NCBI GenBank assembly: GCA_034659375.1
Contig: JAYEHB010000385.1
Span: 1-41,080 of the forward strand
Reading direction: 5' to 3'
Length of the DNA: 41,080 nt
Source: Thermodesulfobacteriota bacterium
Lineage (GTDB): Bacteria > Desulfobacterota > Desulfobacteria > Desulfobacterales > Desulfobacteraceae
The notes beneath the pieces were generated by a model, which worked only from the letters and a program-made list of their open reading frames with translations, was not told the DNA's origin and searched no databases. Position numbers and translations under genes: made by a program. Shown here piece by piece: positions 2,687-40,749 of this stretch (position 1 is its first letter; each line of letters opens with the position of its first letter).

Positions 2687-2718
2687 TTTTGCTCATAATT
2701 AAAGTAGAAAGTTCAAAT

Positions 2719-5952: not shown

Positions 5953-5994
5953 GTTCCCCTCGCTCCCAAGCTGGAGCTTGGGAGCGAGGGGAAC
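5953..5994. terminator. Perfect 20-bp-arm palindrome between convergent rluD and fdhA (bidirectional terminator-like). Member of the CCCAAGCT-NN-AGCTTGGG family.
   Basis: gttcccctcgctcccaagct gg agcttgggagcgaggggaac. No strong T run directly adjoins either side. Confidence 0.6.
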
Positions 5995-6015: not shown

Positions 6016-8781
6016 TCAAGCAGCTTTTTTTATTTTTATTGCACAGACCTTGAATTCAGGTATCTTTGCAACGGGGTCAAGCTTTGCATTGGTCAATCTG
6101 TTGACTGCAGCCTTTGCAAAATGGAACGGAATAAACAGAGTTCCATCAACAGCTTTTGAAGATATTTTAAGCCTTGCAGTTATTGTTCCCCTGCGGGATG
6201 TTACTTCAACCATCTCTCCATGTTTAATGCCAAGTTTTGACGCATCATTTAATGATGTTTCCACAAAACATTCAGGTGCCATTATGTTCAGCCCCGGGCA
6301 TTTCATTGTCATTGTACCTGTGTGGTAATGGTATAAAACCCTGCCTGTTGTAAGCAGAAAGGGATATTCCTCATCCGGCAGTTCAGCCGGTGGTTTGTGG
6401 TCTATGGCATGGAACAGACCCCTGCCCCTGGTAAACTGCTCGGTATGGAGTATTGGTGTTCCAGGATGATCAAGGGTGGGACATGGCCAGTGGAGTCCCT
6501 CTTCCTCTATTCTTTCATAGGTAATCCCCCCGTAGGATGGTGTTACCATACAGATTTCCTGAAATATCTCCCTGCTGTTTTTGTAGTTCATTGGATAGCC
6601 CATGCGGGTTGCAAGATCGCATAGGATTTTCCAGTCATTTCTTGCAAATCCAGGAGCAACAACCGCTTTTCTGATCCTTTGAACCCTTCTTTCAGTATTG
6701 CTGAAGGTCCCGTTTTTTTCAGCAAAGCAGAATGCAGGAAGAACCACATCTGCTGTTTTTGCTGTTTCAGTGAGGAAAATATCCTGAACAACAAAAAAAT
6801 CAAGATTTTTTAATGCTTTTTCAACATGGTTAAGATCAGGGTCTGATACAAGGGGATTTTCCCCTATTATATAGAGGGCTTTTAACTCTCCCTGTTCAGC
6901 TTTTCCAATCATCTCTGTAACAGGCAGACCTGGATTTGGAGATAGTCCCGTGATATCCCAGGCATTTTCATATTTTATGCGTGCATCGTGATCATCAACT
7001 TTTTGATATGCTGTAAAGACATTGGGAAGTCCGCCCATGTCGCAGGCACCCTGGACATTGTTCTGACCCCTTAGAGGATTTACCCCGCCGCCGGCAATTC
7101 CAAGATCTCCGCATAACATGGAGAGATTGGCAAGGGATTTTACATTATCTGTTCCGCAGGTGTGCTGGGTGATTCCCATGCAATAGAGTATGGAAGCCCT
7201 TTTAGCCGCTGCAAAGGTCCGTGCTGTTTCAATGAGTTTTTCTGCAGGTATTGATGTTATTGCTTCAACATATTCAGGATTGTATACTGCAACTTTTTTC
7301 TTTAGCTCTTCAAAACCTTCAGTTCTGTTTGCTACAAACTCTTTATCATGCAGCTCTTCTTTAATTATTACATGCATCAGACCGTTGATCCAGGCAATAT
7401 CTGTACCTGGTTCAGGTCTGAGCCATGTGTCTGCATATTCTGTAAGTTTGATTTTTCTTGGATCTATGACAATAAGGGTTTTTCCCTTAAGTGTGGCTCT
7501 TTTTACAACAGATGAGAGAACAGGATGGTTTTCAGTTGTGTTGGTGCCTGTGGCAAGAATTACATCTGCTTCTCCAATATCGGCAATTGTGTTTGTCATT
7601 GCACCACTTCCAAAAGATGCAGCCAGACCGGCTACTGTGGAAGAGTGTCACAGCCTTGCACAATGGTCAATATTGTTGGTTTTAAGAACCGCTCTTGTGA
7701 ATTTCTGGGCAATATAGTTGTCTTCATTGGTTGTTCGTGCAGATGTAAGAACACCTATGCTGTCAGGGCCTGATTCATTTTTTATCTTACCTAATTTTGA
7801 AGCTACAAGTCCAAGTGCTTCATCCCATGTAGCTCCTTCAAGCTTTCCGTTTTTTTTTATCATTGGCGATGTGAGCCGTTGAGAAGAGCCTACAAAATCA
7901 TACCCAAATCGTCCCTTTACGCAGAGACTGCCGTGGTTGGGTGCCACGTCACCAGCACTGTTGATTTTTATAATTTTGTTGTTCTGCACATTTAACTCAA
8001 TCTGGCATCCAACTCCGCAGAATGTGCATGTTGTCCGTGTTTTAATGGTTTTTTCAAATCGTTTTTTTTCAAGAAAATTTACTGGAACCAGAGCTCCCAC
8101 AGGACAGACCTCAATACATTCTCCACAGAATACGCAGTCAGAATCTTTTAGGGCAACATCTGAGCCTGCCACAATTTTAGTGTCGGCCTCAGTGTAGCCA
8201 AAATCAATGGCATTGTTAACCTGTATCTCTCTGCATGCCTTTACGCACCGCCCGCATAGGATGCATCTGGAAAAATCCCGTATTATAAAAGGGTTGACTT
8301 TTTCCATGGGATATTTGCATTGAGACAGAGGAAGGCCTCTGGCTTTTACCTGGTATCTGTAAGCCAGATCCTGGAGTTTGCACTCTCCCCATACAGGACA
8401 GAGATCCTCTGTTCCGTCTTCTTTAAGAACCTTTAACTGAAATTGTGTCCAGTCTTTAGTATCAAAGTCTCTGATGGCACAATTATGATTTCCCGAGGAT
8501 AGCATGCCCCTTATAATGGAACGTCTCTCCTGGATAACTTTTTTTGATTCAGAATGAACTACCATGTTGTTTGATGCTGGTGTGGCACACGATTCAACAA
8601 GATCATGTTTGTCTTTAACTTCTACAACGCAGATTCTGCATCGTCCTGTGGGGGTAGTTCCTTTTAAGTTGCACAGAGTTGGAATAAAAATATTGTTTCT
8701 ATGTGCTACTTCCAGGATGGTTTCTCCAGGTTCAAAGGAAAGCTGATGATTATCTATGACGATATTATTTTTGTCGGTCAT
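6016..8781 (-). CDS. fdhA: Formate dehydrogenase catalytic subunit, selenocysteine-containing, with N-terminal 2Fe-2S and 4Fe-4S (NuoG/FdsA-like) domains
   Basis: ORFs 7648..8802 and 6016..7599 are one frame joined by an in-frame TGA (plus-strand tca at 7648-7650) in the context IDHCARL-U-HSSTVAGL. Also present: 2Fe-2S (CRICVVEV), two CxxCxxCxxxCP motifs, the Mo-bisPGD 4Fe-4S motif TTCTFCGVGC, and molybdopterin domains. Start probably ATG 8781, since GAGAGG lies 6-7 nt upstream. Confidence 0.88.
7607..7643 (-). promoter_or_regulatory. SECIS-like hairpin immediately 3' of the Sec UGA
   Basis: mRNA CUUCCA-CA-GUAGCC-GGUCU-GGCUGC-AUCUUU-UGGAAG starts 5 nt after UGA. The apical GGUC-containing loop sits over the VAGL codons, the same position as in E. 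coli fdhF. Folded by eye. Confidence 0.6.
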
Positions 8782-8813
8782 GGTCATCCTCTCAATTGGC
8801 AATTTTTAAAAGA

Positions 8814-12963: not shown

Positions 12964-12975
12964 CATTCTAATTTT

Positions 12976-13120
12976 TATAAACTGCCATGGGCAGTCCTGG
13001 TGGTTTAAGTCTGCACACAAATGGGCAACCCTGGTGGTTTAAGTCTGCACACAACAAATGATGAAGGGCAACCACAGGGGGTTGCCCCTACTCCTAGTTT
13101 GCCAAGAATTTCATATAAAA
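12976..13120 (-). repeat. Mosaic repeat: CTGCCATGGGCAG palindrome, duplicated GGTGGTTTAAGTCTGCACAC module, GGGCAACC..GGTTGCCC hairpin, TTTCATATAAA end
   Basis: The reverse complement aligns with 25727-25826, including the ggggcaacc(c)cctgtggttgccc insert. Confidence 0.88.
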
Positions 13121-13844: not shown

Positions 13845-15536
13845 ATGGTTAAAATAGAACCTGAGGGTTTTAAAAAAGAACCTGAGGAACTTAAAATAAT
13901 ACCTCTGGGCGGTCTTGGTGAGATTGGCCTTAATATGATGGTTGTTGAATATGATCAGACAATTTTTCTTATTGATGCAGGTCTGATGTTTCCTGAGGAT
14001 CACATGTTAGGTGTTGATATTGTAATTCCGGAAATAGACTATATCAAAGAGAACAGGGACAGGGTAAAAGGGATAATTATTACCCATGCCCATGAAGATC
14101 ACATAGGGGCACTTGTCTATCTTTTAAAGGATATTCCAATACCTGTCTATGGTACAGAGTTTACCCTGGGTATTATTGAAAACAAGCTCCAGGAATTTGA
14201 TCTTTTAAATACAACAGTGCTCAATGAGGTGGCTCCTGGAGAGGTTGTTTCAATATCTCCCTTTGAAATTGAGTTTATCCGTGTAAGCCACAGCATTGTG
14301 GGTGGTGTGGGGCTTGCCATAACAACTCCCCTGGGGCTTGTTGTTCACACAGGTGATTTCAGGCTAAATCATTGTTTAAAGGAATCAAACACAACAGATA
14401 TATCAAGGTTTGCCAAGTGCGGTGAACAGGGGGTTCTGGCACTTTTTTCTGATTCAACCAATGTGGAGCGGGAAGGCTTTTCTGTCTCTGACCAGATGGT
14501 GTTTGACTCCCTGGGAAAAATAATAGCAAACAGTGAAGGCAGGGTTATAATTGCTCTTTTTGCCTCTAATATATTTAGAATCCAGCAGATTATAGATATT
14601 GCACTGAAAAATAAGCGCAAAATAGTATTTAACGGCAGAAGCATTGAGCAAAATGTTGCCGTGGCAAAGAGACTTGGTTATCTTGACTTTCCAGATGATA
14701 TGGTCCTGAATGTAAAGAGTGTAAATTCCCAGCCTGATAACGAGGTTGTGATTATTACAACGGGAAGTCAGGGAGAACCCATGTCTGCCCTGTCACGCAT
14801 GGCAACAGGGTATCACAAGCAGATTAATATTAAAAAGGGGGACTCTGTCACTCTTTCGTCAAAATTTATTCCAGGTAATGAAAAAGCAATAGCAAATATC
14901 ATAAATAATCTGTACAGACGCGGTGCCGACGTGGTCTATGATAAGCTTGCACAGGTACATGTCTCAGGGCATGCATGCCGGGAAGAGCTGAAAATGATGA
15001 TCCATTTAACAAATCCTGAATATTTTATTCCCATTCATGGTGAGTACCGTCATCTGGTTATCCATGCAAGACTTGCTGAGAATCTTGGACTTGTTAGAAA
15101 AAAAGTTTTACTTGCAGAAAATGGCAGGGTTATTACCTTTGATGAAAATGGTGGGAGAATCGCAGGCAGCGTGGACACAGGCAGAATCCTGGTTGATGGC
15201 AAGGGCATAGGAGATGTTGGAAGGAGCGTCTTAAAGGAAAGACGTATTCTTTCCGAGGATGGTCTTGTTGTTGTTTCCATGATAATCGATGAGGAGACAG
15301 GCATTGTGCTGTACGGGCCTGAACTTATTTCCAAGGGTTTTGTCTTTGGTTCTGAAACCGGTTATCTTGTTGATGATGCACAATGTGTGATTTTAGAGAT
15401 TGTTGAGGAGATAGAGGCAGGGGTTGCTAACAGGGTGGATATCATACGTTCTAAACTGCAGAAAGCCCTTAAGCAGTATTTCTTTTTTACAATAAGACGT
15501 CGGCCGGTTATAGTGCCCATAATAATTGAAATATGA
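13845..15536 (+). CDS. rnj: Ribonuclease J (metallo-beta-lactamase / beta-CASP)
   Basis: IIPLGGLGEIGLNMMVVEY, THAHEDHIGAL and later beta-CASP motifs (HVSGHA). 563 aa. Confidence 0.92.
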   Translation: MVKIEPEGFKKEPEELKIIPLGGLGEIGLNMMVVEYDQTIFLIDAGLMFPEDHMLGVDIVIPEIDYIKENRDRVKGIIITHAHEDHIGALVYLLKDIPIPVYGTEFTLGIIENKLQEFDLLNTTVLNEVAPGEVVSISPFEIEFIRVSHSIVGGVGLAITTPLGLVVHTGDFRLNHCLKESNTTDISRFAKCGEQGVLALFSDSTNVEREGFSVSDQMVFDSLGKIIANSEGRVIIALFASNIFRIQQIIDIALKNKRKIVFNGRSIEQNVAVAKRLGYLDFPDDMVLNVKSVNSQPDNEVVIITTGSQGEPMSALSRMATGYHKQINIKKGDSVTLSSKFIPGNEKAIANIINNLYRRGADVVYDKLAQVHVSGHACREELKMMIHLTNPEYFIPIHGEYRHLVIHARLAENLGLVRKKVLLAENGRVITFDENGGRIAGSVDTGRILVDGKGIGDVGRSVLKERRILSEDGLVVVSMIIDEETGIVLYGPELISKGFVFGSETGYLVDDAQCVILEIVEEIEAGVANRVDIIRSKLQKALKQYFFFTIRRRPVIVPIIIEI

Positions 15537-17878
15537 AAAAAGAGATATTAGGATTACTGTTTTTTTTTCTTGTTGTTCTTACTTTGGTGAGTCTTTTTTC
15601 CTATGATCCTGGTGATCCTTCCATAAATAATCATACCTTCTCAGCATCTGTTGAGGTTGAGAACTCCTTTGGCCTTGTGGGGGCACACTATTCAGGTCTT
15701 CTCATATCTTTTTTTGGACTTGGTTCATTCTGGATTCCCTTGCTTTTATTGCTGACCTCTGTGTGGTATTTAAAGGGGCGTTCTGCAAAAATAATATTTT
15801 GCACCCTTGTCGGCGGTCTTCTGCTGATCATTTCAACGGGCAGCATGCTCTCAATTTTCCATGACCAGTATATTTTTTTTGGGGAAAAAATTTCATCCGG
15901 CGGAATGATTGGGATTCCCTTTGCCTGTTTTCTTCTTAAGTACACCAATCCTGCAGGATCTATCATAATTTTGCTTTTTTTCGCTGTTCTGGGATCTGTT
16001 CTGGTAACGGGGATTTCAATTGTTACCATCCTTTTGTTTTTTAAAAAAACTCTATTTGAATTTGTTGTTGGGTTTTTCAAAAAAATGAAAAAGGTCTTTT
16101 CTCTTTTTGGAAAGCTTTTTAAATTTTTTCAGGAAAAATACAGGAAAAAGGCTCGTTCCATGGATATTATATCTCTTGTCGGGGATAAAAGCAGTATAAA
16201 AGGTCTTCTTCCACAACGAACCTCCAAAACTGATGAATTATTTCCCGGAACAGGGGGAGGTAAGCAGGTTGTTAAAGAGAGGAAAAAGGCTGAACCAATT
16301 ATAAAAGAGATTAAAAAGGATGATGCTGATTTTGAACTCTTTAATGATTTTGGGGATGATATTAGAGAGAAACCCAGCTTTATTCTTCCTTCTATCTCCT
16401 TGTTAAATGATAAAAAAGCGGTCAAAGTAAGTGTTGATATTGAAAGACTTAGAAAAAAAGGTGAAATACTTGACAAAAAACTCAATGATTTCGGTATTAC
16501 CGGTGAAGTTGTAGCGATTCTTCCCGGTCCTGTTCTTACAACCTTTGAATACAGGCCTGCTCCCGGTATAAAGATAAGCAAGATTGTAAATTTAACAGAT
16601 GATCTTGCCCTTGCCTTAAGTGCATTAAGTATCAGAATTATCGCACCCATACCGGGCAAGGATGTCATCGGAGTTGAGCTTCCCAATGATATAAGAGAAA
16701 TGGTTACTCTTAAAGAGATTCTTGTCTCATCTGAATTTGCAGCCTCCACCTCAAAACTGACTCTTGGACTTGGAAAGGATATTTTTGGAACCCCTGCTGC
16801 TGCCCAGCTTGAGTCCATGCCTCATCTGCTCATAGCAGGTGCCACCGGTACAGGCAAGAGTGTTGGTTTAAATGCCATGATTATCAGTATTCTATATAAG
16901 GCAGGTCCGGAAGATGTAAAGTTTATCATGGTTGATCCCAAGAGGATTGAACTATCAGTCTATGACGGAATTCCCCATCTTATTTCTCCTGTTGTAACAG
17001 ATATGAAAAAGGCTACCAACGCTCTTTTCTGGGCTGTACGTGAAATGGAGAGACGGTATGAACTCCTTGCAGAGAGCGGCGTAAGGAACATGCTTCAGTA
17101 CAATGATATGGTTGAAAAAAAGAAAAGGCAGGCAAAGGGAAAAAAAGGACAGATGCCCCAGGGTAGAGAGGGCAGCTGGGCAGAGTCAGGGGAAATTGAC
17201 CAGGATGGTGAATCAGAAGAAATTCCTGAAAAATTACCTTATTTAGTGGTGATTGTGGATGAGCTGGCAGATCTTATGATGGTTGCCTCAAGGGATGTGG
17301 AATCAGCTCTCACCCGTCTTGCCCAGATGGCAAGGGCTGCAGGTATTCACCTGATTCTGGCAACCCAGAGACCTTCTGTGGATGTATTGACCGGAATTAT
17401 TAAGGCCAATTTTCCCACAAGGATTTCATTTCAGGTCTCCTCAAGAATAGATTCCAGAACCATTCTTGATTCCAATGGTGCTGAAAGGCTTCTTGGTAAT
17501 GGTGATATGCTTTTTCTCCCCCCTGGAACAGGAAGGCTTAAAAGAATTCAGTGTGCATATGTTTCCGAGGCTGAAATAGGGCGTATAACATCTTATTTAA
17601 GGGAACAGCAGGCTCCTGACTATGTTGAGGATGTTACCAGGCAAGCCGAGGAAGATAAAAAATCTATTGATAAGTCTGATTATGATGAAAAATATGATGA
17701 AGCCGTTGCCCTTATCACCAAAACCCGTCAGGCTTCAATATCCAGTGTGCAGCGTCATTTGCGCATTGGATATAACAGGGCTGCCAGGATAATCGAAACA
17801 ATGGAGGCAGAAGGTATAATCGGACCCCAGGAGGGTTCAAAACAGCGGGAGGTTCTTGTAAAGAGTTATGAAGATTGA
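15533..17878 (+). CDS. ftsK: DNA translocase FtsK/SpoIIIE
   Basis: N-terminal transmembrane segments. Walker A GATGTGKSVGLN. VVIVDELADLM. C-terminal gamma winged-helix (SISSVQRHLRIGYNRAARIIE). ATGA overlap with the rnj stop. Confidence 0.93.
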   Translation: MKKEILGLLFFFLVVLTLVSLFSYDPGDPSINNHTFSASVEVENSFGLVGAHYSGLLISFFGLGSFWIPLLLLLTSVWYLKGRSAKIIFCTLVGGLLLIISTGSMLSIFHDQYIFFGEKISSGGMIGIPFACFLLKYTNPAGSIIILLFFAVLGSVLVTGISIVTILLFFKKTLFEFVVGFFKKMKKVFSLFGKLFKFFQEKYRKKARSMDIISLVGDKSSIKGLLPQRTSKTDELFPGTGGGKQVVKERKKAEPIIKEIKKDDADFELFNDFGDDIREKPSFILPSISLLNDKKAVKVSVDIERLRKKGEILDKKLNDFGITGEVVAILPGPVLTTFEYRPAPGIKISKIVNLTDDLALALSALSIRIIAPIPGKDVIGVELPNDIREMVTLKEILVSSEFAASTSKLTLGLGKDIFGTPAAAQLESMPHLLIAGATGTGKSVGLNAMIISILYKAGPEDVKFIMVDPKRIELSVYDGIPHLISPVVTDMKKATNALFWAVREMERRYELLAESGVRNMLQYNDMVEKKKRQAKGKKGQMPQGREGSWAESGEIDQDGESEEIPEKLPYLVVIVDELADLMMVASRDVESALTRLAQMARAAGIHLILATQRPSVDVLTGIIKANFPTRISFQVSSRIDSRTILDSNGAERLLGNGDMLFLPPGTGRLKRIQCAYVSEAEIGRITSYLREQQAPDYVEDVTRQAEEDKKSIDKSDYDEKYDEAVALITKTRQASISSVQRHLRIGYNRAARIIETMEAEGIIGPQEGSKQREVLVKSYED

Positions 17879-18494: not shown

Positions 18495-18620
18495 TCATGC
18501 TCGGGCATTCCGGTTTATATGAAAGTCCGTTCAAACGACTATAATTATTGGACTTTCATCTTTAGGGTATTGTGACCGATGCGAATGGCCATGCCGGTTA
18601 CGTGTGACTTTCAGGGTATA
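18477..18620 (+). repeat. Mosaic repeat between convergent methyltransferase genes. Contains both stop codons.
   Basis: ttggccgatggcagataatcatgctcgggcattccggtt + tatatgaaagtccgttcaaacgact..ggactttcat + tagggtattgtgaccgatgcgaatggccatgccggttacgtgtgactttcagggtat. Matches 25219-25295 and the reverse complement of 9150-9345. Confidence 0.88.
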
Positions 18621-20728: not shown

Positions 20729-20972
20729 TGGTTTCTACCCTTTAGTTTCTTAATGCTTATTTTCGTGTTATTTTGGCAAAAGAATTAAAAAATCCGTTTG
20801 CGTTTGACCTTTAGGTTAGGTTCTGGCTTGTCCAGGTTAGGTACTGTGACCGATGCGGAAACTACGCTCCGGCCGTGCCGGTTTATATGAAAGTCCTGGC
20901 AAACCAGGAATGTAACTTTCATCATTTGTTGTGTGCAGACTTAGACCACCAAGGCTGCCCGTGGCAGTTATA
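20729..20972 (+). repeat. Composite: GGTTTCTACCCTTTAG + L-module + GTGACCGATG..CCGGCCGTGCCGG module + ATGAAAGTCCTGGCAAACCAGG..ACTTTCAT hairpin + GTGTGCAGACTTAGACCACC + CTGCCCGTGGCAG palindrome
   Basis: This is the best-preserved full-length array. Each part matches the copies listed elsewhere. The folC stop codon (20968-20970) lies in its last bases. Confidence 0.92.
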
Positions 20973-22275
20973 TTAAATCTTTTATGATTTTTGCTCTGGC
21001 TTCTCCTGCCACATAAAGAGAACCTGCAACACAGATAACATCTGAACCAGATGATCCTTTTACTGCATATTCCACTGCTTCTGCCGCATCTTTAATTATA
21101 ATCGTTTCCTGGTTTGAAAGTTTTTCTACTGCTTGTTTAAGGATTTCAGGCTCAAGGCTTCGATCAATTTTTGCCTTTGTGATTATTATTTTGTTAACAT
21201 GGGGCACCAGGCTTTTAAGCATTGATTCATAGGGTTTATCATCTAAAATTCCAATTACAAGAGTAATCTTTTTTTCTGAAAGTTCCTGGCTGAGGTAGGT
21301 GCCAAGATTCTTTGCAGCCTCAAAATTATGGGCTCCGTCAAGGATAACCATTGGGTTGACCATGATATGCTCAAGTCGTCCAGGCCATGTTGTTGTCTGA
21401 ATGCTTTTTCTGATGCCCTTTTCTGTCAGGTTAAATCCGTGATGATTTTTTTTAAAATCATTTGCAAAAAGAAGTTCCAGGGCGGCCAGGGCCAGGCCTG
21501 CATTCTCTATCTGGTGATTGCCTGGAAGGGATGTTTTTATTTTTGTCCACCTGTTGTTAATGCCATTGTAATTAAAAGATTGTTCTTTGGAGTTTTTTTC
21601 TGTATTAAAATCTTTTTTATATAGATAGAGTGGGGCAGATTTCTTTTTTGCAATTTTTTTAAGAACAGCAAGGGCTTCTTCCTGTTTTACTCCTGTGATC
21701 ACCGGAGTGTTCTTTTTAATGATTCCGCATTTTTCCCCTGCAATCTCTTGAATTGTCTCACCCAGATAATCAGTATGTTCAATGGAGAGATTTGAGATGA
21801 TACAGAGCTCAGGTTTAACTACGTTTGTGGCATCAAGCCGGCCGCCCATACCGGTCTCTAATACTGCCCATTGAACCTTTTCTCTGTTAAAGAGATAAAA
21901 GCCCATGGCAGTGGCAATTTCAAAAAAAGTTGCTTTTCTCTCTCCTGTATCAGCTTTTTGAACTGCCAGGTAAGATTCAACAATATCATCGTTGGATACA
22001 TCTATGCCGTTTATTGAAAATCTTTCATTAAATTTCACCAGATGGGGGGATGTGTAAAGAGCTGTTTTAAATCCTGCTTCCCTTAGTAAGGAGGCTGTGT
22101 ATGATGCTATGGAACCTTTTCCGTTTGTGCCGGCTATATGAATGCTTTTAAATTTTGGTTCAGACAGATTAAGTCTTTTTAGAATATCTTTGATTGTGGA
22201 AAGTTCAAGTTTAATGCCAAAACGTCCAAGAGCGTACATTTCATCAAGGCATTCATTGTATGAGATCTGTTTCAT
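20968..22275 (-). CDS. folC: Bifunctional folylpolyglutamate synthase / dihydrofolate synthase
   Basis: Mur-ligase family: HIAGTNGKGS P-loop, DATNV, ILDGAHN. 435 aa. Confidence 0.9.
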   Translation of the reverse strand: MKQISYNECLDEMYALGRFGIKLELSTIKDILKRLNLSEPKFKSIHIAGTNGKGSIASYTASLLREAGFKTALYTSPHLVKFNERFSINGIDVSNDDIVESYLAVQKADTGERKATFFEIATAMGFYLFNREKVQWAVLETGMGGRLDATNVVKPELCIISNLSIEHTDYLGETIQEIAGEKCGIIKKNTPVITGVKQEEALAVLKKIAKKKSAPLYLYKKDFNTEKNSKEQSFNYNGINNRWTKIKTSLPGNHQIENAGLALAALELLFANDFKKNHHGFNLTEKGIRKSIQTTTWPGRLEHIMVNPMVILDGAHNFEAAKNLGTYLSQELSEKKITLVIGILDDKPYESMLKSLVPHVNKIIITKAKIDRSLEPEILKQAVEKLSNQETIIIKDAAEAVEYAVKGSSGSDVICVAGSLYVAGEARAKIIKDLI

Positions 22276-22953: not shown

Positions 22954-23045
22954 GACAAAAATAGAGATTCAGCCTCTTTTTTGTAAATACTCGGTTTATA
23001 GTAAGGGCCATGGAAATTTTAAAATCCACCAATAGGGTGCAGTGT

Positions 23046-23206
23046 TTTAGTTTTGTAATTCTTATTTTCGTGTTATTTTGGCAAAAGAATTAAAAAAATC
23101 CGTTTGTGTGTGATCTTCAGGTTAGGTTCTGGCTTGTCCAGGTTTAAAATATTCGGCTTATGCTGTAAAGTGGCCGAAAGCAGATGATCATGCTTTCGGC
23201 CATGCC
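23046..23206 (+). repeat. L-module + AATATTCGGCTTATGCTGTAAAG module + perfect hairpin variant of the GGCCGA..CGGCC module
   Basis: 23046-23144 aligns with the other L copies. 23147-23170 matches 27268-27288 and the reverse complement of 25191-25213. GGCCGAAAGC (23172-23181) pairs with GCTTTCGGCC (23192-23201). Confidence 0.88.
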
Positions 23207-23921: not shown

Positions 23922-24126
23922 TTTTAACTCCTTTGTTTAAATTAATGATATGTTATAGATTTAATAAAGAGGTGTTTCCTCTTTTGCAGTTTTAAACCTG
24001 GCTTAAATTGGGTTTCAGGGCTTTTTCTCTGTTTACCTCTTAAATTGTCTGCTGCTTCATTAAAATGGTTGTGCAGATCTCTTATACCTGGTAAGACCCC
24101 TGAGTCCAACATAAGTCTTAAGTTTT

Positions 24127-24227
24127 ATTTAGTTTCTTAATTCTTAATTTTCGTGTTTTCTGGCAAAAAAATTAAGAGACCCGTTTGCGTGTGACCTTTA
24201 GGTTAGATTCTGGCTTGTCCAGGTTAG
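24127..24227 (+). repeat. L-module copy
   Basis: tttagtttcttaattcttaattttcgtgttttctggcaaaaaaattaagagacccgtttgcgtgtgacctttaggttagattctggcttgtccaggttagg. Confidence 0.9.
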
Positions 24228-24283
24228 GTTTTATAAAAGTGGTTGAAGAATGTCAAGTCTTGGTGTATTGAAAGGTTAAAATT

Positions 24284-25190: not shown

Positions 25191-25466
25191 CTTTACATTA
25201 TAAGCCGAATATTTATCTTGGTTTCTGCCCTTCAGGGTATTGTGGCCGATGCAGTAATTATGCTCCGGTCATGCTGGTTACGTGTGACCTTTAGTGCCTT
25301 ATTCCTCAGTTTCTGTTAAAAAAACAAGAAAATGAGGAACGGCAACTGGGTTGCGGGTTTTCCGCGTTAGTTTCTTAATTCTTATTTTCGTGTTATTTTG
25401 GCAAAAGAATTAAAAAATCCGTTTGCGTGTGACATTTAGGTTAGGTTCTGGTTTGTCCAGGTTAGG
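25191..25466 (+). repeat. Composite repeat cluster: reverse-complement TATTCGGCTTATAATGTAAAG + GGTTTCTGCCCTTCAGGGTAT + GTGGCCGATG..module + GGTTACGTGTGACCTTTAG + 13-bp hairpin + L-module
   Basis: Module-by-module matches to 18555-18620, the reverse complement of 9150-9220, and 20729-20841. Hairpin ttcctcagtttct..agaaaatgaggaa at 25302-25339. Confidence 0.88.
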
Positions 25467-25515
25467 TTGTAAAGTTAGGTTACAAAAAAATAAGCTGTCC
25501 AAGAAAACATCATGT

Positions 25516-25560
25516 CATCAGAAAAACAGATCAATCATGCCATCAGAAAAACAGATCAAT
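25516..25560 (+). repeat. Two perfect 20-nt direct repeats (CATCAGAAAAACAGATCAAT) separated by 5 nt
   Basis: 25516-25535 and 25541-25560 are identical. They are followed by the perfect palindrome GGGGTCAG-GT-CTGACCCC at 25583-25600. Confidence 0.9.
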
Positions 25561-25637
25561 TGAATAATTCCAGGGGGCCAACGGGGTCAGGTCTGACCCC
25601 TCCAGGTACGACTATAATCATTGGATTTTCATTTTTT

Positions 25638-25920
25638 GGTTTCTGCCCTTTTTTTAGGGTATTGTGGCCGATGAGAATGACCATGCACCGGCCAGTTTCT
25701 GCCCTTTAGGGTATGCCGGTTTATATGAAAGTCCTGGCAAACCAGGAGTAGGGGCAACCCCCTGTGGTTGCCCTTCATCATTACGTTGTGTGCAGACTTA
25801 GACCACCAGGGTTGCCCATAGCAGTTTATATGAAAGTCCTGGCAACCCAGGAGTGTAACTTTCATCATTTGTTGTGTGCAGACTTAGACCACCAAGGCTG
25901 CCCATGGCAGTTATATGAAA
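25638..25920 (+). repeat. Composite repeat cluster ending in two tandem copies of the ATGAAAGTCC-hairpin / GTGTGCAGACTTAGACCACC / palindrome unit
   Basis: 25722-25826 (with a GGGGCAACC..GGTTGCCC insert) and 25827-25917 (near-identical to 20884-20968). Preceded by the ggtttctgccc..tagggtattgtggccgatgagaatgaccatgcaccggcc modules. Confidence 0.92.
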
Positions 25921-26010
25921 TAAAGGCATAGGCTATGCAAGACAAAGGTTGCAGGCAGGACAAATGTGTGTGCAGAAAAATAATGAATAATTTTTACGGG
26001 GTGTGTTTCC

Positions 26011-32620: not shown

Positions 32621-33373
32621 GTGAAAAAATATCACCTTGACCCTGACCAACTGCCAGGACATGTTGCCGTGATAATGGACGGTAATGGAAGATGGGCAAA
32701 AAAAAGGTTAATGAACCGTGTAAAGGGTCATGAAAGGGGAACAGAAACAGTCCGCTCAATTGTTGATATCTGTTGTGAGCTTGGGATTGAGTTTCTTACT
32801 CTTTACGCTTTTTCCACGGAAAACTGGTCAAGGCCGGAAAGAGAGATTTCACTGTTGATGAGCCTTTTAAAACGATATGCTAAATCAGAACGTTCTGAGT
32901 TTGTTGAAAAAAATATCCGGCTCAACGTAATCGGTCAAAAGCACAGATTACCTGAAAACGTAAGAAGAGAGCTTGATATAACCATTGACCAGACCAGGAA
33001 TAATAATGGGCTGGTGGTAAATCTTGCTTTAAGCTATGGTGCCAGGGAAGAGATAACAAGGGCTGTAAAAAAACTGGCACAAAAGGTTGAGGCTGGAGAT
33101 ATCCTGTGCAGGGATATCTCTGAAAAGAGCATATGTGATCATCTTTACACAAAAAATATGCCTGATCCTGATATCCTGATACGTACCAGTGGAGAGATGC
33201 GGCTTAGTAATTTTCTTTTGTGGCAGGCTGCATATACTGAGATTTTTATTACAGATACTCTGTGGCCTGATTTTACAAAAAAAGAGTTTGTTAATATTTT
33301 AAGAGAATATCAAACCCGGGACCGCAGGTTTGGAAAGGTTGTATGCACCTCAAACGATGGATCACCGCAATAG
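32621..33373 (+). CDS. uppS: Isoprenyl transferase (undecaprenyl-diphosphate synthase). Start uncertain: GTG 32621, or ATG 32573/32582 overlapping frr.
   Basis: HVAVIMDGNGRWAKKR, FSTENWSRP, and RTSGEMRLSNFLLWQAAYTE. Confidence 0.88.
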   Translation: MKKYHLDPDQLPGHVAVIMDGNGRWAKKRLMNRVKGHERGTETVRSIVDICCELGIEFLTLYAFSTENWSRPEREISLLMSLLKRYAKSERSEFVEKNIRLNVIGQKHRLPENVRRELDITIDQTRNNNGLVVNLALSYGAREEITRAVKKLAQKVEAGDILCRDISEKSICDHLYTKNMPDPDILIRTSGEMRLSNFLLWQAAYTEIFITDTLWPDFTKKEFVNILREYQTRDRRFGKVVCTSNDGSPQ

Positions 33374-34152
33374 TTCTTCTTCCGCTTCTTTTTCTGATTA
33401 TTTTAAAAGGAAGTACCCTGCTCTTTTCAATTCTCATGGCTTTTATTGCCGTTGCTGCCATGACAGAATATTTTTCAATTGTATCGTTCCCTTTATCAGG
33501 TAAAATACCATTAACCATTAAATTTTTTGCCCATGGAGTCGCCCTTGCACTGATAGCAGGTGCCCAGACAGGCTCTATTCAAATTATAGTGGCAGCTCTT
33601 GCCATGAATATCATACTCCTCTCCATGACAGTTATTGCTGATTTTTCCAGGGAAAGTTCCATTCTTGATTCTGTTTCAAAACAGATACAGGGGGTTGTCT
33701 ATATACCTCTGTTTCTCTCTATGTTTGTACTCATAAGAAATTCAGAAAATGGAGCTTTGTGGGTTGTCTGGCTCTGGCTTATTATTGGGGCAGGCGATAC
33801 AGGTGCATTTTATTGTGGTATGAATTTCGGCAAACGAGCCCTTGCTCCAAAGGTCAGTCCCAAAAAAACAGTTGAAGGTGCCATAGGAGGTCTTTTTGCA
33901 GCAGTTCTTGTGGGGATTGTCTTTAGCAGACTGTTTCTGCCGGAAATTTCTCCATGTATGGTGGTTCTTTTTGCCGCAGTGGCAGCTGCAGCAGGACAGA
34001 TTGGCGATCTTTTTGAGTCAGCCCTTAAAAGAGCAGGTAATATAAAGGATTCAGGAAAGATTTTACCTGGGCATGGTGGTATTCTCGATAGAATAGACGG
34101 GCTGCTTTTTGCTGTTCCTGTTGCATATGTTTTTAAGGTCTTTTTGATATGA
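33343..34152 (+). CDS. cdsA: Phosphatidate cytidylyltransferase
   Basis: Multi-transmembrane protein with the C-terminal signature SALKRAGNIKDSGKILPGHGGILDRIDG. Confidence 0.9.
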   Translation: MHLKRWITAIVLLPLLFLIILKGSTLLFSILMAFIAVAAMTEYFSIVSFPLSGKIPLTIKFFAHGVALALIAGAQTGSIQIIVAALAMNIILLSMTVIADFSRESSILDSVSKQIQGVVYIPLFLSMFVLIRNSENGALWVVWLWLIIGAGDTGAFYCGMNFGKRALAPKVSPKKTVEGAIGGLFAAVLVGIVFSRLFLPEISPCMVVLFAAVAAAAGQIGDLFESALKRAGNIKDSGKILPGHGGILDRIDGLLFAVPVAYVFKVFLI

Positions 34153-34283
34153 AATTTTGTCCAATGTACTTTACTGATAGTTGTAACCACGGCCTTGTTT
34201 CCAGGCTGAAGCTTGGGAACGAGGCTTGCGGCAGAGTTTTATCTTTGGTTGTGGCAAAGCGATCCGTCATGGGGGGTATATGA
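34149..34283 (+). other. 44-codon relay mini-ORF filling a 131-bp repeat-derived insertion between cdsA and dxr (ATGA overlaps at both ends)
   Basis: ATG 34149 overlaps the cdsA TGA (34150-34152). The frame is open to TGA 34281-34283, which overlaps the dxr ATG 34280. Flanked by ATATGAAA at 34147-34154 and 34278-34285. Peptide: MKFCPMYFTDSCNHGLVSRLKLGNEACGRVLSLVVAKRSVMGGI. Confidence 0.45.
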
Positions 34284-35446
34284 AAAGATTATCCATTCTT
34301 GGTTCCACAGGCTCCATTGGAAGGAGTACCCTTGAGATTGCTGCAATGCACCCGGAGCTGTTTGATGTTGTGGTACTTGCCGCTGCAAACAGTGTTGACC
34401 TTCTTTCTGAACAGATCCGACAATTTAAGCCTGAACTTGCAGTGGTTATTGATGAGACGCGTGCCGGGGAACTGAAAAAGTTGATAAACGGAACCGGCTT
34501 TGATGGAATTAAAACCAGGATTCTTTTTGGTGACAAGGGGTATGAAGAGGCTGCTTCCTATGGTGGTGCAGATATGGTTCTGCTTGCCATGGTGGGTGCC
34601 GCAGGATTAATGCCGGCTTTAGCAGCAATAGATGCCGGCAGGGAGATCGCACTGGCCAATAAGGAGACCCTTGTCATGGCCGGGGATATTGTCATGTCCC
34701 GGGCAAGGGAAAAAAATGTTAAGATTTTGCCCGTTGACAGTGAGCACAGTGCCATATTTCAGTGCCTTGAGGGGAACAGGCAAAAAGATTTTAAAAAAAT
34801 TTTTCTTACTGCATCGGGTGGTCCTTTTAGAACAAAGAGTATTTCAGAGTTTAAGGATATTCTGCCTGAACATGCTTTAAATCATCCCACATGGAATATG
34901 GGCAGCAAGATAAGTATTGATTCTGCTACCATGATGAACAAGGGGCTTGAGATTATTGAAGCTGTTCATCTTTTTGATATTCCTGTCTCTGCCGTTGAGG
35001 TGCTGGTTCATCCCCAGAGTATAGTACATTCCATGGTGGGGTTTAAAGATGGTATAGTAATGGCCCAGATGGGATTGCCTGATATGAAGGCTGCCATATC
35101 CTATGCTCTTTCCTGGCCAAAGCGGCTGGAGCCTGGCTTGAATTTTCCTGATTTTGCAGCAATGGAGAATCTTGTTTTTGAAAAGCCTGATCATGAAAAA
35201 TTTCCCTCCCTTGGTTTTGCAAAGGAGGCATGCCGCACAGGCGGGACTATGCCTGCTGTTATGAATGCAGCCAATGAGGTTGCCGTTAAAGCTTTTCTTG
35301 AATTAAAAATTGATTTCCCAGCTATTTTTAAATTAATTGAGAAATGTATGGAGCTTCATAATAGCGTTGACTCTCCTGATATTTCAGATATTATTGAGGC
35401 TGATGCATGGGCAAGGAAAACATTAAAATTGAAAATTGAAAATTGA
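34280..35446 (+). CDS. dxr: 1-deoxy-D-xylulose 5-phosphate reductoisomerase
   Basis: MKRLSILGSTGSIGRSTL NADPH motif, LANKE, and DSEHSAIFQCL. Start taken at ATG 34280, not the ORF-track start 34226. Confidence 0.93.
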   Translation: MKRLSILGSTGSIGRSTLEIAAMHPELFDVVVLAAANSVDLLSEQIRQFKPELAVVIDETRAGELKKLINGTGFDGIKTRILFGDKGYEEAASYGGADMVLLAMVGAAGLMPALAAIDAGREIALANKETLVMAGDIVMSRAREKNVKILPVDSEHSAIFQCLEGNRQKDFKKIFLTASGGPFRTKSISEFKDILPEHALNHPTWNMGSKISIDSATMMNKGLEIIEAVHLFDIPVSAVEVLVHPQSIVHSMVGFKDGIVMAQMGLPDMKAAISYALSWPKRLEPGLNFPDFAAMENLVFEKPDHEKFPSLGFAKEACRTGGTMPAVMNAANEVAVKAFLELKIDFPAIFKLIEKCMELHNSVDSPDISDIIEADAWARKTLKLKIEN

Positions 35447-35544
35447 AAATTGAAAATTAGAAATTAGAAATTAGAAATTAGAAATTAGAAATTAGAAATT
35501 AGACATTAGAAATTAGACATTAGACATTAGAAATTAGAAATTAG
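35425..35544 (+). repeat. Heptanucleotide tandem array: 4 x AAAATTG, one 8-nt hybrid unit, then 12 x A(A/C)ATTAG
   Basis: Direct reading. The dxr stop TGA (35444-35446) and its last roughly 7 codons (KLKIEN) lie inside the AAAATTG units. Confidence 0.95.
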
Positions 35545-35638
35545 GAAGATTAAAGTGGCAGGTTCGTGGTTCAATGTTGTTGATCAGGAACCGGCTTTGA
35601 GTCTGTGACCCCAAATTTCAGATTTCAAGGATTATATT

Positions 35639-39700: not shown

Positions 39701-39791
39701 GATAAAAGGGCTTGATGGGGATATGATTACAGAAATGTCCGTTGACATGCTTGAAAAGGCCTTTACAGAGCCTCTGGGGGATATGATATGA
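36699..39791 (+). CDS. purL: Phosphoribosylformylglycinamidine synthase, PurL (FGAM synthase II) with N-terminal PurS-like domain(s) fused
   Basis: The first roughly 170 aa look like two PurS-type modules (IEVALKPELVDAEAESL.., IWIGLRPGVRDNPAST..). These are followed by AIR-synthase-type PurL domains (SDHCNHNTF, ETHNSPS, GGGGLSSSVGE). ATG 36711 is an alternative start. Confidence 0.85.
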   Translation: MVDNMISCIEVALKPELVDAEAESLKKKALDYFNINISDVRSVNLVTLEADLDRDQLDLIKNEILTNPVIHYSSLIPLDIKFDWCIWIGLRPGVRDNPASTAVEAVEDILNREFKPGEGIYTSKRYCLAGDGLALEDIEKIAKELLANPIIQQWKVFSKKEWDSKKGAGSTPAKVLLDHEPEFKIINIDSDKELQRISDKRNLALNPSDIPVIRQYFLDEKVQQSRKEMGLNEPTDVEIEYISQARSDHCNHNTFRGLFRYQDVETGEKSVEKSLFKTFIEEPTLRLKEKKEWVVSVLWDNAGVGKFDENNNYVITGETHNSPSNMEAYGGAITGIVGVYRDPMGTGMGSRLIMGSYGFCVGDIDYKGPLKPPLHPRRLLDGVIEGVKDGGNKSGVPTTFGQTLFNSGYMGKSLVFVTALGIMPAKVPGEPDPAQKRISGDEQRAAVCGEIPEKPSHTKETSKGEFIVMSGGRVGKDGIHGVTVSSESYSENTPAGHVQIGDPYTQKKMHDFLLIARDKGLFQFITDNGGGGLSSSVGESAMISNGCEVWLDKVPLKYEGLDMWEIWISESQERMTISVKPENIERFMELSEEHAVESTVIGRYTDTGKLHIKYNDKTCAYIDMDLLEKGFPGWEFDAQWLSPELRGLTEPVLGSPNDFETLLCDMLSRPNICSKEWITRQYDHEVQGGSVIKPLGGVKNNIQSDASVIRPLLKSGKGLAFSQALLPWYSKIDSFHMMTCTIDEAVRRLIAVGGTLDHIGGVDNFCWPDIAFHPEKNPDGKFKAAQLVRACRALKQACLAYEIPLLSGKDSMYVDGHLTGKYGQRVKVSALETVQFSATSVIEDVTKCITMEPKTSGDLVYILGVTKNELGASEYYELLGKTGLNVAKVNFEKFKVVYKALEKAIDQEIVASAHAVSRGGLGVHIAMSAMAGGLGIDFDLSKVPADDIRGKLDNAKILFSESQGRFIVTIAPENRSVFEKLFKGMACSFAGKVTDSHFNMMIKGLDGDMITEMSVDMLEKAFTEPLGDMI

Positions 39792-39931
39792 AAAAAGTGA
39801 GGGTACTGGTTTTAACAGGATTTAACGATCTCGTTCCCAAGCTCCAGCTTGGGAACAAGCGGGTACTGGCTGAAATAAATGGAGTTTCATTTTTCGTTAT
39901 GGCAGAACATTCTGCCATGGGGGTTATATGA
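39788..39931 (+). other. 47-codon relay mini-ORF filling a 140-bp insertion between purL and purQ (ATGA overlaps at both ends). Its first 12 codons duplicate the purQ N-terminus.
   Basis: ATG 39788 overlaps the purL TGA (39789-39791). The frame is open to TGA 39929-39931, which overlaps the purQ ATG 39928. ATATGAAA lies at 39786-39793 and 39926-39933. Peptide: MKKVRVLVLTGFNDLVPKLQLGNKRVLAEINGVSFFVMAEHSAMGVI. Confidence 0.45.
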
Positions 39932-40749
39932 AAAGGGTCAAAGCACTGGTTCTTACAGGATTTGGATTAAATTGTGATATTGAGACAGCTTTTGCATTTG
40001 AACTTGCAGGGGCTGAGGCAAAAAGGGTTCATATTAATTCCCTGATTAATGGTAAAGAAGATCTTGATGATTTTCAAATTCTTGCCTTTGGCGGAGGCTT
40101 TTCCTGGGGTGATGACCATGGCGCAGGAGTTGTTCAGGCCCTTAAGCTGAAAAAACATATTGGTGCAAAGCTTCTCTCTTTTATTGAAAAGGGCAGACTT
40201 GTCATGGGAATCTGCAATGGTTTCCAGACCCTGGTTAACCTTGGTCTGCTTCCTGGTTTAAACAATGATTACAGAGCCAGAACTGTTGCTCTTACATGGA
40301 ACGATTGTGGTAATTTCAGAGACCAGTGGGTGCATCTTAGATCAAATCAGCAAAGTCCCTGCGTTTTTACAAAGGATATGGAGGTTATTGATCTGCCTGT
40401 TCGTCATGGTGAGGGTAAGTTTGTTGCAGAGCCTGAAATAATTGATCAGCTTATGGCAAACAATCAGGTGGTATTAAGGTATGCTGATAAAGACGGTTCT
40501 TCTGCTGAAAAGAGTTTTCCCCTGAATCCCAATGGCTCAATTTATGACATAGCAGGTATCTGCGATCCCACAGGGCGAATTTTCGGACTCATGCCCCATC
40601 CCGAAGCATTTAACCATTTTACAAATCACCCTGACTGGACAAGGAAAAAACAGCAGCTTAAAAGCCAGGGTAAAGAGATGGATACCGGCATTACCAGTGG
40701 TATTAAAATGTTTAAAAACGGTGTGGATTATATGGCTTCCATGCTTTAA
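39928..40749 (+). CDS. purQ: Phosphoribosylformylglycinamidine synthase I (glutamine amidotransferase subunit)
   Basis: LVLTGFGLNCD, nucleophile GICNGFQ, and MPHPE. Confidence 0.9.
   Translation: MKRVKALVLTGFGLNCDIETAFAFELAGAEAKRVHINSLINGKEDLDDFQILAFGGGFSWGDDHGAGVVQALKLKKHIGAKLLSFIEKGRLVMGICNGFQTLVNLGLLPGLNNDYRARTVALTWNDCGNFRDQWVHLRSNQQSPCVFTKDMEVIDLPVRHGEGKFVAEPEIIDQLMANNQVVLRYADKDGSSAEKSFPLNPNGSIYDIAGICDPTGRIFGLMPHPEAFNHFTNHPDWTRKKQQLKSQGKEMDTGITSGIKMFKNGVDYMASML

Follow-up and report, generated by a model that had tools for sequence, protein, structure and literature searches.

Introduction

REP elements classically sit between genes of the same operon, and REP and BIME elements decouple expression. 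We know of no description of a REP inserted exactly into a stop/start overlap so as to yield a phased open reading frame (ORF). Several known systems come close to such a case. Bacterial MITEs are flanked by a direct repeat, present only once at empty sites, and may supply expression signals to their neighbors; some MITEs, among them the Rickettsia palindromic elements (RPEs), insert in frame within ORFs (PMC10969869). REPs whose one end bears a conserved GTAG or CGTC tag are described by Di Nocera et al. (PMC3733652). The coupling of translation through termination and reinitiation at overlapping ATGA has also been reviewed (PMC12548453).

Here, we describe two short segments at the cdsA/dxr and purL/purQ junctions of a 41,080-nucleotide stretch of DNA (the window) from a Thermodesulfobacteriota bacterium of the Desulfobacteraceae (contig JAYEHB010000385.1). 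In each of them, a REP-type palindrome is nested within a larger repeat unit, and the whole contains a small ORF that overlaps the gene on either side.

Gene layout at the two junctions

A sequence-only reading of the window had reported a 44-codon ORF wedged between cdsA and dxr, and its stops, ATGs, codon count, flanking ATATGAAA copies, and 131-nt length were all correct when we read the region again. All features of the two junctions lie on the + strand. The cdsA gene (phosphatidate cytidylyltransferase, positions 33343–34152 in the ORF list; NCBIfam PRK11624, 6.6e-37) ends with TGA 34150–34152. This stop falls within a ATATGAAA core (34147–34154) that corresponds to the native cdsA/dxr junction, and the former dxr ATG at 34149 now starts the 44-codon ORF, the proposed translational relay (34149–34283). 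A right ATATGAAA core (34278–34285) holds both the stop of this ORF (34281–34283) and the ATG at 34280 of dxr (DXP reductoisomerase, 34280–35446; NCBIfam PRK12464, 3.8e-149). Dxr matches its NCBIfam profile from residue 1, and insert 1 lies between the stop of cdsA and the start of dxr. Gene calls on Logan contigs L001 and L002 include the 44-codon ORF.

The same architecture had been claimed for purL/purQ, where we found an identical layout. The left core (39786–39793) contains the purL stop (39789–39791) and the ATG (39788) of a 47-codon ORF (39788–39931), with purL ending at 39791, over the start of that ORF. The right core (39926–39933) contains the stop of the ORF and the purQ ATG at 39928 (purQ, 39928–40749; NCBIfam PRK01175, 1.3e-64). 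Strains L007 and L117 carry this ORF as well. The two ATATGAAA copies are spaced 131 nt apart at cdsA/dxr (34147 and 34278) and 140 nt apart at purL/purQ (39786 and 39926). Either end of both ORFs is an ATGA stop/start overlap (34149–34152 and 34280–34283; 39788–39791 and 39928–39931). NCBIfam profiles confirmed the identities of uppS, cdsA, dxr, rseP, purS-purL, and purQ.

Both segments are insertions

We compared both operons with those of three relatives within the Desulfobacteraceae (L003, L004, and L006). The synteny is the same, and the insert is absent from all three, which have plain 4-nt ATGA overlaps at both junctions. A single (C/T)TATGAA(A/G) or GATATGAAA stands where the window has ATATGAAA on both sides. 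Because the relatives keep these plain overlaps, both window segments are insertions; they are independent insertions of related sequence. The cdsA/dxr segment is very probably both an insertion and a member of a mobile repeat family.

The ATATGAAA on both flanks is a duplicated target, or a recombination core. It is doubled at the inserts and single-copy at the empty sites of the relatives, which is the pattern of a MITE target-site duplication. In this organism, ATATGAAA doubles as the overlap between the stop of cdsA and the start of dxr (..ATA TGA / ATG AAA..), so an insertion there restores the cdsA TGA plus an orphan ATG at the left edge and a TGA plus the dxr ATG at the right edge. ATGA at both ends is therefore an automatic outcome of insertion into ATATGAAA. 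What the earlier reading took for a designed architecture of flanking ATGA and ATATGAAA is instead the boundary motif of the repeat family, duplicated upon insertion. An empty junction with ATGA and ATATGAAA persists at position 15531 of the window. We also looked for a strain with an empty purL/purQ site and found the insert in 4/4 sampled strains.

Anatomy of the inserts

The two inserts had been described as homologous in part. On alignment, this is real for the palindrome (34192–34225 vs 39830–39859, 90% over 30 nt) and for the 3′ module (34234–34287 vs 39882–39935, 80% over 54 nt), but no homology links the left ~35 nt of one insert to those of the other. The two ORFs share a reading frame, as proposed, by way of the common ATATGAAA core.

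The left segment of insert 1 (34155–34188) has a weak likeness to the 5′ half of a repeat unit (TCCAATGTACTTTACTGATAG..TTGTAAC vs the unit at window positions 47–82; p = 0.02, uncorrected). An origin of this part as a duplicate of the dxr 5′ end, by analogy with insert 2, was rejected (p = 0.95). The REP-type palindrome that follows (34192–34225) is a 16-bp stem with three G.U pairs on the + strand and the loop GA. The repeat-unit 3′ half (34234–34277, family D18) comprises GAGTTTTAT, CTTTGGTTGTGGC, a small hairpin, and then CATGGGGGGT, with a G-run at 34271–34276.

In insert 2, the left segment (39788–39823) is a diverged copy of purQ codons 1–12 (MKKVRVLVLTGF vs MKRVKALVLTGF), with 28/36 nt identical and a score matched by 0/2000 shuffles. 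This extra 36-nt duplication is not explained by a simple 8–9-nt target duplication. The purQ 5′ end shares CAAAGCACTGG with a unit on L024, and its kinship with the unit 5′ half was unsupported by an HMM (E = 6). The palindrome of insert 2 (39830–39859) reads CTCGTTCCCAAGCT-CC-AGCTTGGGAACAAG and forms 14 pairs with one mismatch. Its repeat-unit 3′ half (39882–39925) has a G-run at 39919–39923; an HMM built without either insert matches 39885–39935 at E = 8.3e-5, and blastn aligns this half to units on L081 and L024. The 3′ module of insert 1 scores E = 0.5 by HMM alone, and its family membership rests on the 80% identity to insert 2.

The REP palindrome and the repeat-unit family

Nested within each insert is the REP-type palindrome GTTCCCAAGCTnnAGCTTGGGAAC. 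A lone copy (5953–5994, no strand assigned) with a perfect 20-bp stem lies between convergent genes, giving three copies in 41 kb, all extragenic, in a source genome represented by this single contig. All three have the size of the short imperfect palindromes of the REP class, with a stem-loop of about 20–40 nt. The same 24-nt palindrome core surrounds an IS200-like Y1 transposase gene (181 aa; PF01797, 34.6 bits) on an unrelated contig, L119, with four copies upstream and four downstream, and this 24-nt palindrome is present in 10 IMG/VR stretches. The GTAG/CGTC tag is absent beside the stem at both inserts, where the flanks read ..ACGATCTCGTTCCC.. and ..ACGGCCTTGTTTCC..

Both inserts are one copy each of a lineage-specific structured repeat unit that is bounded by (T)ATATGAAA and ranges from 68 to 140 nt. 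There are at least 15 further copies in the window and unit arrays on related metagenome contigs. Searching the window with an HMM of unit 3′ halves, with neither insert included, gave 15 hits at E < 1e-3, and TTATATGAAA occurs there 13 times vs 0.27 expected. The unit consists of a 5′ hairpin (base ATGAAAG/CTTTCAT), the linker TT(C/T)GTTGTGG, which is conserved, another small hairpin, and the 3′ end GCCATGnnGGTT(T)ATATGAAA. Hairpin 2 shows a compensatory change from A-U to U-A. The subfamily found at both junctions additionally has the nested REP palindrome and the G-run. Heterogeneous units are arranged head to tail with exactly one TATATGAAA between them in the window and on L024, L081, L043, L086, and L051. 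On L086, which comes from another organism and carries another unit subfamily, three units intervene between a single TATATGAAA and the sucC start ATG-AAA.

The inserts have no terminal inverted repeats (TIRs): just inside the ATATGAAA cores, their ends read TTTTGTCCAATG.. and ..GTCATGGGGGGT, with no complementarity between the two. No transposase was found among the scanned window ORFs, and neither the window nor the other loci retrieved contain a cognate autonomous insertion sequence with the same ends. The subfamily pattern CTTGGGAAC N40-70 ATGGGGGNTATATGAAA had 0 matches in genome contigs and 0 in metagenome contigs. Searching species-representative genome contigs, a set that does not include the source lineage, with CCGGTTTATATGAAAGTCC gave two single matches; GGTTTATATGAAAGTCC is present in 106 metagenome stretches, mostly chance singletons, with about ten containing true family units. 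BLAST of the insert core against plasmids and phages gave no match, and Rfam 15 covariance models found nothing on either insert at the gathering score and E ≤ 1. An integron attC site, a CRISPR-like array, and a classical TIR-bearing MITE were all discarded on anatomy.

Phase and openness of the frame

Unlike the flanking ATGA, phase and openness do not follow automatically from insertion. The ORF frame is the sole open one in each insert, and the other two forward frames have 1–3 internal stops each. Given composition, an open frame has a probability of 0.079 in insert 1 and 0.038 in insert 2. The insert 2 ORF is still open in the sister strain L007, with nine substitutions and no indels. 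We examined 17 core-to-core units. Those leading directly into a real gene start, namely the two window inserts and the chain of three upstream of sucC on L086, are all open and correctly phased (5/5), vs 0/12 of the others. This association (Fisher p = 1.6e-4; p = 2e-3 counting loci) comes from three loci only, with L086 units 1 and 3 near-identical and the class of units leading into a real gene defined post hoc.

The sequence-only reading had argued that two open, phased inserts are unlikely by chance, and that further copies at other junctions with stops or the wrong phase at the chance rate would speak against it. Our counts agree with the argument: phase and openness look non-random, as they hold for all five gene-start units and none of the 12 other units.

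The encoded peptides

The two inserts differ by 13 nonsynonymous vs 3 synonymous codons, and their differences are spread evenly over codon positions (5/7/7). Between strains, the core has a pN of 0.037 and a pS of 0.040. The comparison of synonymous and nonsynonymous changes that had been suggested as a check thus gives no sign of peptide constraint. Searches of 5.8e9 clusters and 1.84e9 representatives returned no peptide homologues except ORFs that translate REP arrays. The likeness LV.KL.LGN ... MG.I, which had been put forward as shared peptide sequence, is merely the translation of the REP palindrome and the repeat 3′ module. On all of this evidence, the two ORFs are not a pair of conserved micropeptide genes.

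RNA structure and Shine-Dalgarno sequences

Folding gave z-scores of -2.9 for the + strand and -0.8 for the - strand. The predicted fold, at roughly -48 kcal/mol, pairs the dxr Shine-Dalgarno (SD) sequence and ATG. Core divergence between strains is 3.8%, vs a pS of 9–12% in the flanking genes, and of the four strain differences in the insert 2 core, two fall in loops and two change pairs to G.U on the + strand. A terminator or promoter role was rejected, as no consensus pattern occurs within the inserts.

The G-run had been placed 8 nt before each downstream ATG; the actual gap is 3–4 nt (34271–34276; 39919–39923). The suggestion that it acts as a new SD fared better. Predicted anti-SD pairing is -10.6 kcal/mol for dxr, vs -0.1 to -4.0 kcal/mol at the native junctions of the relatives, and -9.1 kcal/mol for the other new SD. 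A new SD of this strength could free the downstream genes from any relay.

Discussion

On balance, we consider it probable that the repeat insertion at cdsA/dxr was tolerated because it formed a translational relay ORF and not a peptide gene. A non-autonomous structured unit has integrated at (T)ATATGAAA, leaving that sequence on either side; the insertion, its family, and the target motif are seen directly in the sequences, as are the unconserved peptide and the link between phase and gene-start context. The coupled junction would tolerate only insertions that leave an open ATG-to-TGA frame. Ribosomes ending cdsA would then re-initiate at the orphan ATG 34149 and translate 44 codons, and this translation would melt the ~-48 kcal/mol structure over the dxr SD and ATG. 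After terminating at the dxr start, the same ribosomes would initiate anew on dxr, with the peptide as a by-product, and the G-run in both inserts may serve as a fresh SD. We infer the translation of the ORF and the relay of ribosomes; a dependence of downstream expression on upstream translation has indirect support in the phase association and in the predicted pairing of the SD/ATG region. Taken alone, the step in which the translated ORF carries ribosomes over the insert is a model that we rate at slightly under even odds. A broader proposal is more tentative still. Start-codon-targeting repeats at (T)AT-ATG-AAA may persist at coupled starts only as ATGA-to-ATGA relay mini-ORFs, one each at cdsA/dxr and purL/purQ and three in a chain before sucC, selected on frame and openness and not on peptide, and would then form a distinct class of functional, sequence-unconstrained ORF made by transposition.

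The insertion could also be a neutral passenger, with an open, phased frame by chance and with dxr and purQ translated from the G-run SD of the element. We regard this as unlikely, while taking it seriously: an open-frame probability of 0.04–0.08 times 1/3 for phase is not astronomically small, the two inserts have a homologous core and so do not count as two independent open frames, at least 44 codons are open upstream of the core TGA in about 10% of the other family copies, and both new SDs pair strongly (-10.6 and -9.1 kcal/mol). However, chance does not account readily for the 5/5 vs 0/12 link to gene-start context or for three ATGA-linked open units before sucC in a different subfamily and organism, and the SD/ATG region is paired in the predicted fold. 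An improbable alternative is that the inserts act through cis-acting RNA or DNA structure, as an mRNA stabilizer, an RNase processing site, an expression decoupler, or a protein-binding site, with translation of the ORF irrelevant. The fold is strong and strand-specific, core divergence is under the synonymous rate with all changes compatible with structure, hairpin 2 contains a compensatory pair, and the palindrome is identified as a REP. Such a role leaves the association with phase and openness unexplained, and the inserts match no Rfam family and have no terminator-like tail. It is also compatible with a relay and does not exclude one.

Two further explanations are very improbable. The ORFs could be paralogous 44-aa and 47-aa micropeptide genes with functional products, as both are open, are called by gene finders, and have the motifs LV.KL.LGN and MG.I in common. 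Against this stand the excess of nonsynonymous codons without third-position bias, a pN about equal to pS in the core, the lack of homologues beyond REP-array ORFs in the clusters and representatives searched, and the origin of the motifs in a translated palindrome and repeat end. Equally hard to credit is that the purL/purQ insert is bypassed (GGA-TTT take-off and downstream GGA-TTT landing) or excised (through 36–45-nt direct repeats), which would make the left purQ-like 12 codons the PurQ N-terminus. These codons do show five synonymous and no nonsynonymous changes between strains (pS 0.58 vs 0.09–0.12 in flanking genes), and a strong hairpin begins 6 nt past the duplicated GGA TTT. This signal consists of five substitutions only, and a second N-terminus, complete with SD and ATG, lies downstream. 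The insert is present in 4/4 sampled strains, no stop codon follows the putative take-off site, and cdsA/dxr shows nothing comparable. Right-to-left gene conversion was rejected by inspection as a source of the synonymous-only changes in the left purQ copy, as the matching positions are interleaved and not one tract.

If the relay holds, translational coupling would limit which mobile-element insertions operons tolerate, and short ORFs could be maintained purely for the act of translation. It would also be a natural case in which an element aimed at start codons supplies its own SD, and would aid the reading of repeat-rich Desulfobacteraceae genomes. For small-ORF annotation, such ORFs are listed as genes on public contigs yet are not peptide genes. 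If the relay fails, what is left is a REP/MITE-like insertion of the ordinary kind, its symmetric flanks being no more than a duplicated target.

Comparison with known systems

The inserts resemble REP/REPIN/BIME elements and their RAYT transposases in having a 30–42-nt imperfect extragenic palindrome, with a 24-nt core identical to the palindromes flanking the Y1_Tnp gene of L119. As in BIMEs, the units stand in mosaic intergenic arrays of hairpin modules. Unlike REPs, they have no evident GTAG/CGTC tag, nor does the larger TATATGAAA-bounded unit amount to a REP doublet. Elements such as Correia/NEMIS, ERIC, RUP, Nezha, and other bacterial MITEs are likewise small (about 80–140 nt), non-coding, multi-copy, structured, and flanked by direct repeats. 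The unit differs from them in having no TIRs, a strict 8–9-nt target that equals its own boundary motif, and heterogeneous head-to-tail arrays. PATEs, which derive from IS200/IS605 elements, also have subterminal hairpins, a specific target beside the element end, and no TIRs, a likeness we offer as a lead only. IS200/IS605 elements are without target duplication, whereas the window unit has the same 8–9-mer on both sides.

RPEs provide another parallel, as palindromic repeats in coding-dense DNA that preserve an open frame. However, RPEs join the host protein, whereas the window insert lies between genes as a separate stop/start-bounded ORF of unconstrained sequence. Finally, as in classical translational coupling, there is ATGA at both ends, and the downstream start lies in a predicted structure that an upstream ribosome would open. 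Classical coupling joins two real genes; here, the ORF of a mobile element would act as the relay, with three such ORFs in a chain on L086.

Insertions at two overlapping gene junctions

The cdsA gene (33343..34152, plus strand) ends in a TGA (34150-34152) that overlaps an ATG at 34149, from which 44 codons run on the plus strand to a TGA (34281-34283) overlapping the dxr ATG at 34280. Copies of the boundary core ATATGAAA flank this segment, here called insert 1, at 34147-34154 and 34278-34285, a spacing of 131 nt. These coordinates, first given in the sequence-only reading, were all correct on re-examination of the window. The arrangement recurs at the purL/purQ junction, with cores starting at 39786 and 39926, 140 nt apart, and a 47-codon ORF (39788..39931, plus strand) between the two genes (insert 2). 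Gene identities across the operon uppS-cdsA-dxr-rseP-purSL-purQ are confirmed by NCBIfam.

The ATGA overlap is a standard translational-coupling junction. Three related Desulfobacteraceae loci (L003, L004, and L006) fully keep the synteny from rho to purQ, and all three have a 4-nt ATGA overlap and no insert at both cdsA/dxr and purL/purQ; the closest public Dxr is only 72-73% identical. Neither the repeat sequence TTATATGAAA nor the palindrome described below was found in any of the three. The two segments are insertions, and the one at purL/purQ is present in 4/4 sampled strains. The insert-free purL 3' end and purQ start of L003 (~15280-15310, GCCCATGGGGGGAATGATATGAAAAAGG) resemble the element 3' end (GCCATGGGGGTTATATGAAAAGG; window 39914-39935); this may be a chance likeness of SD and start, or the target preference may extend further. 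About 20 tandem 7-nt units (AAATTGA / AAATTAG / ACATTAG) at 35412-35554 fill the dxr-rseP spacer, which spans only 14-76 nt in the three relatives.

Since ATATGAAA bounds the unit and occurs just once at each empty site of the relatives, its duplication is either a target duplication or a site-specific recombination core. The motif falls on gene starts (..AT ATG AAA..) in the source lineage and, with TGA read one base later, also on stop/start overlaps. The symmetric ATGA flanks, described as an architecture in the sequence-only reading, are an automatic product of insertion because the boundary motif coincides with the stop/start overlap and is duplicated. At 15531-15538, where ORFs 13845..15536 and 15533..17878 meet, an intact ATGA overlap in ATATGAAA context is a candidate for an empty target.

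A family of structured repeat units

The proposed homology of the two inserts is partial, covering a palindrome (34192-34225 and 39830-39859) and a 54-nt 3' module (34234-34287 and 39882-39935, 80% identity). The window's intergenic DNA is filled with a repeat unit, and the module is its 3' half; TTATATGAAA occurs 13 times in the window versus 0.27 expected. The unit begins with TATATGAAAG, a stem, a loop, and a return stem ending in CTTTCAT, continues through the linker TT(C/T)GTTGTGG and a small hairpin, and ends with GCCATGnnGGTT and the next TATATGAAA. An HMM trained on unit 3' halves, with both inserts left out, found 15 copies in the window at E < 1e-3 and matched insert 2 at E = 8.3e-5. 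Insert 1 alone reached only E = 0.5 and is assigned to the family through the 80% identity of its 3' module to insert 2. Hairpin 2 shows one compensatory exchange, A-U to U-A. Terminal inverted repeats are absent from the TATATGAAA units. The window, one entire MAG contig of 41,080 nt, yielded no transposase. Related units occur in five metagenome contigs (L024, L081, L043, L086, and L051), often as head-to-tail arrays of differing subtypes with exactly one TATATGAAA between neighbours.

Arrays and single copies of TATATGAAA-bounded units fill most of the larger intergenic regions of the window (1-220, 2486-2690, 9246-9345, 12972-13120, 18480-18600, 20845-20980, and 25240-25921), and the contig start carries a 90-nt tandem pair. 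A second, unrelated family of about 113 nt (..CGTTTGCGTGTGACCTTTAGGTTAGGTTCTGGCTTGTCCAGGTTAG) has 4-5 copies in the adk/coaE/rho region (8919-8964, 20730-20842, 23036-23148, 24117-24229, and 25355-25467). At 7595-7653 (minus strand), where ORFs 6016..7599 and 7648..8802 meet, Rfam gives a SECIS_3 match (46 bits, E = 1e-7) that falls short of the gathering score; ORF 7648..8802 carries Fe-S and molybdopterin oxidoreductase domains. The two ORFs are probably one selenocysteine-containing formate-dehydrogenase-like gene with UGA read through.

The palindrome is a widespread module in its own right. It stands alone between convergent genes at 5953-5994, and the exact palindrome is present in 10 IMG/VR stretches. 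When both insert peptides were run with HMMER against all 1.84 billion representative proteins, the only hits were the two peptides themselves and three ORFs, the latter being translated palindrome arrays with LVPKLQLGN repeated 3-4 times. One of these ORFs lies in L119, an unrelated contig with eight copies of GTTCCCAAGCT(GG/CC)AGCTTGGGAAC, four upstream and four downstream of the gene for a 181-aa protein matching PF01797 (IS200-like Y1 transposase; 34.6 bits, cut-off 23). Such a layout is classic for REP/RAYT systems. In this stretch (L119 440-1720) the arrays around the transposase gene consist of GTTCCCAAGCTnnAGCTTGGGAAC, the palindrome found in both window inserts.

Reading frame and constraint

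The ORF frame is the sole open frame in each insert, and it stays open in 7.9% (insert 1) and 3.8% (insert 2) of composition-matched shuffles. For an ATG-to-TGA frame to be open, the core-to-core length must be 2 mod 3 and stop codons must be absent. We surveyed all 17 core-to-core intervals of at most 170 nt in the window and fetched loci. Such open frames, or relay ORFs, occur in five: the two window inserts and three chained units of L086 (80, 95, and 80 nt), which are located between a single TATATGAAA and the sucC start (ATG-AAA). In the L086 chain (2657-2925, minus strand; 27, 32, and 27 codons), which begins 13 nt past the stop codon of a propionate/acetate-CoA ligase-like gene, each unit runs ATGA to ATGA and the last one finishes at the sucC ATG. 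Precisely these five units, and no others, precede a real gene start directly; of the other 12, nine are out of phase and three are in phase with stops. The pattern (relay ORFs in 5/5 at gene starts versus 0/12 elsewhere) passes the check set by the sequence-only reading, which further copies with stops or wrong phase at chance frequency would have refuted. Fisher's exact test gives 1.6e-4 by units and 2.2e-3 by loci, for a category that was set post hoc and that three loci underlie. The tie between open phase and gene-start context is suggestive, not proven.

For a conserved peptide, the evidence is unfavourable. The two insert cores differ at 5/7/7 sites over the three codon positions, with 13 codons changed nonsynonymously and 3 synonymously, and no homologous peptide family was found in NCBIfam or the 1.84 billion proteins. 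In L007, a sister strain at 96.4% identity, the purL/purQ insert is present and free of indels; the core shows pS 0.040 and pN 0.037, versus 0.088 and 0.016 in flanking purL and 0.123 and 0.015 in purQ. Of the four core changes, two are in the palindrome loop and two turn Watson-Crick into G.U pairs on the plus strand. Because core divergence (3.8%) is under the synonymous rate and the changes are confined to loop and G.U pairs, the data point to nucleotide- or structure-level rather than peptide constraint.

The left ends differ. In insert 2 the left end (39788-39823) duplicates codons 1-12 of purQ in diverged form (28/36 nt; score reached in 0/2000 shuffles). Between the window and L007 this duplicate has 5 synonymous and 0 nonsynonymous changes (pS 0.58 versus about 0.1 in flanking genes). 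A simple conversion tract from the right-hand purQ copy is ruled out, as the matching pattern is not contiguous. The left end of insert 1 shows no resemblance to dxr (p = 0.95) and a weak one to a unit 5' half (uncorrected p = 0.02).

A possible ribosome relay and known systems

The predicted plus-strand fold (-48 kcal/mol, z = -2.9; minus strand z = -0.8) pairs the region holding the downstream SD and ATG. Neither insert contains a terminator or promoter consensus. The G-run had been proposed as a possible new SD in both inserts. For dxr, the predicted anti-SD duplex with the subfamily G-run is -10.6 kcal/mol versus -0.1 to -4.0 at the relatives' native junctions; for purQ it is unchanged (-9.1 versus -7.3 to -9.3). 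We infer a relay in which ribosomes terminating on the upstream gene would re-initiate at the orphan ATG, translate across the insert while melting its fold, and stop on the downstream ATG, re-initiating there with help of the new SD.

We know of no description of a start-codon-targeting repeat whose coupled-junction copies are all open ATGA to ATGA, including a chain of three. The window palindrome is of REP type and elsewhere accompanies a RAYT gene. The units, mosaics of hairpins, resemble BIMEs and MITEs and have a strict target. The literature documents palindromic inserts that stay in frame (RPEs) and expression signals carried by MITEs (PMC10969869). The components are of known kinds: a REP palindrome, BIME/MITE-like units, and ATGA coupling.
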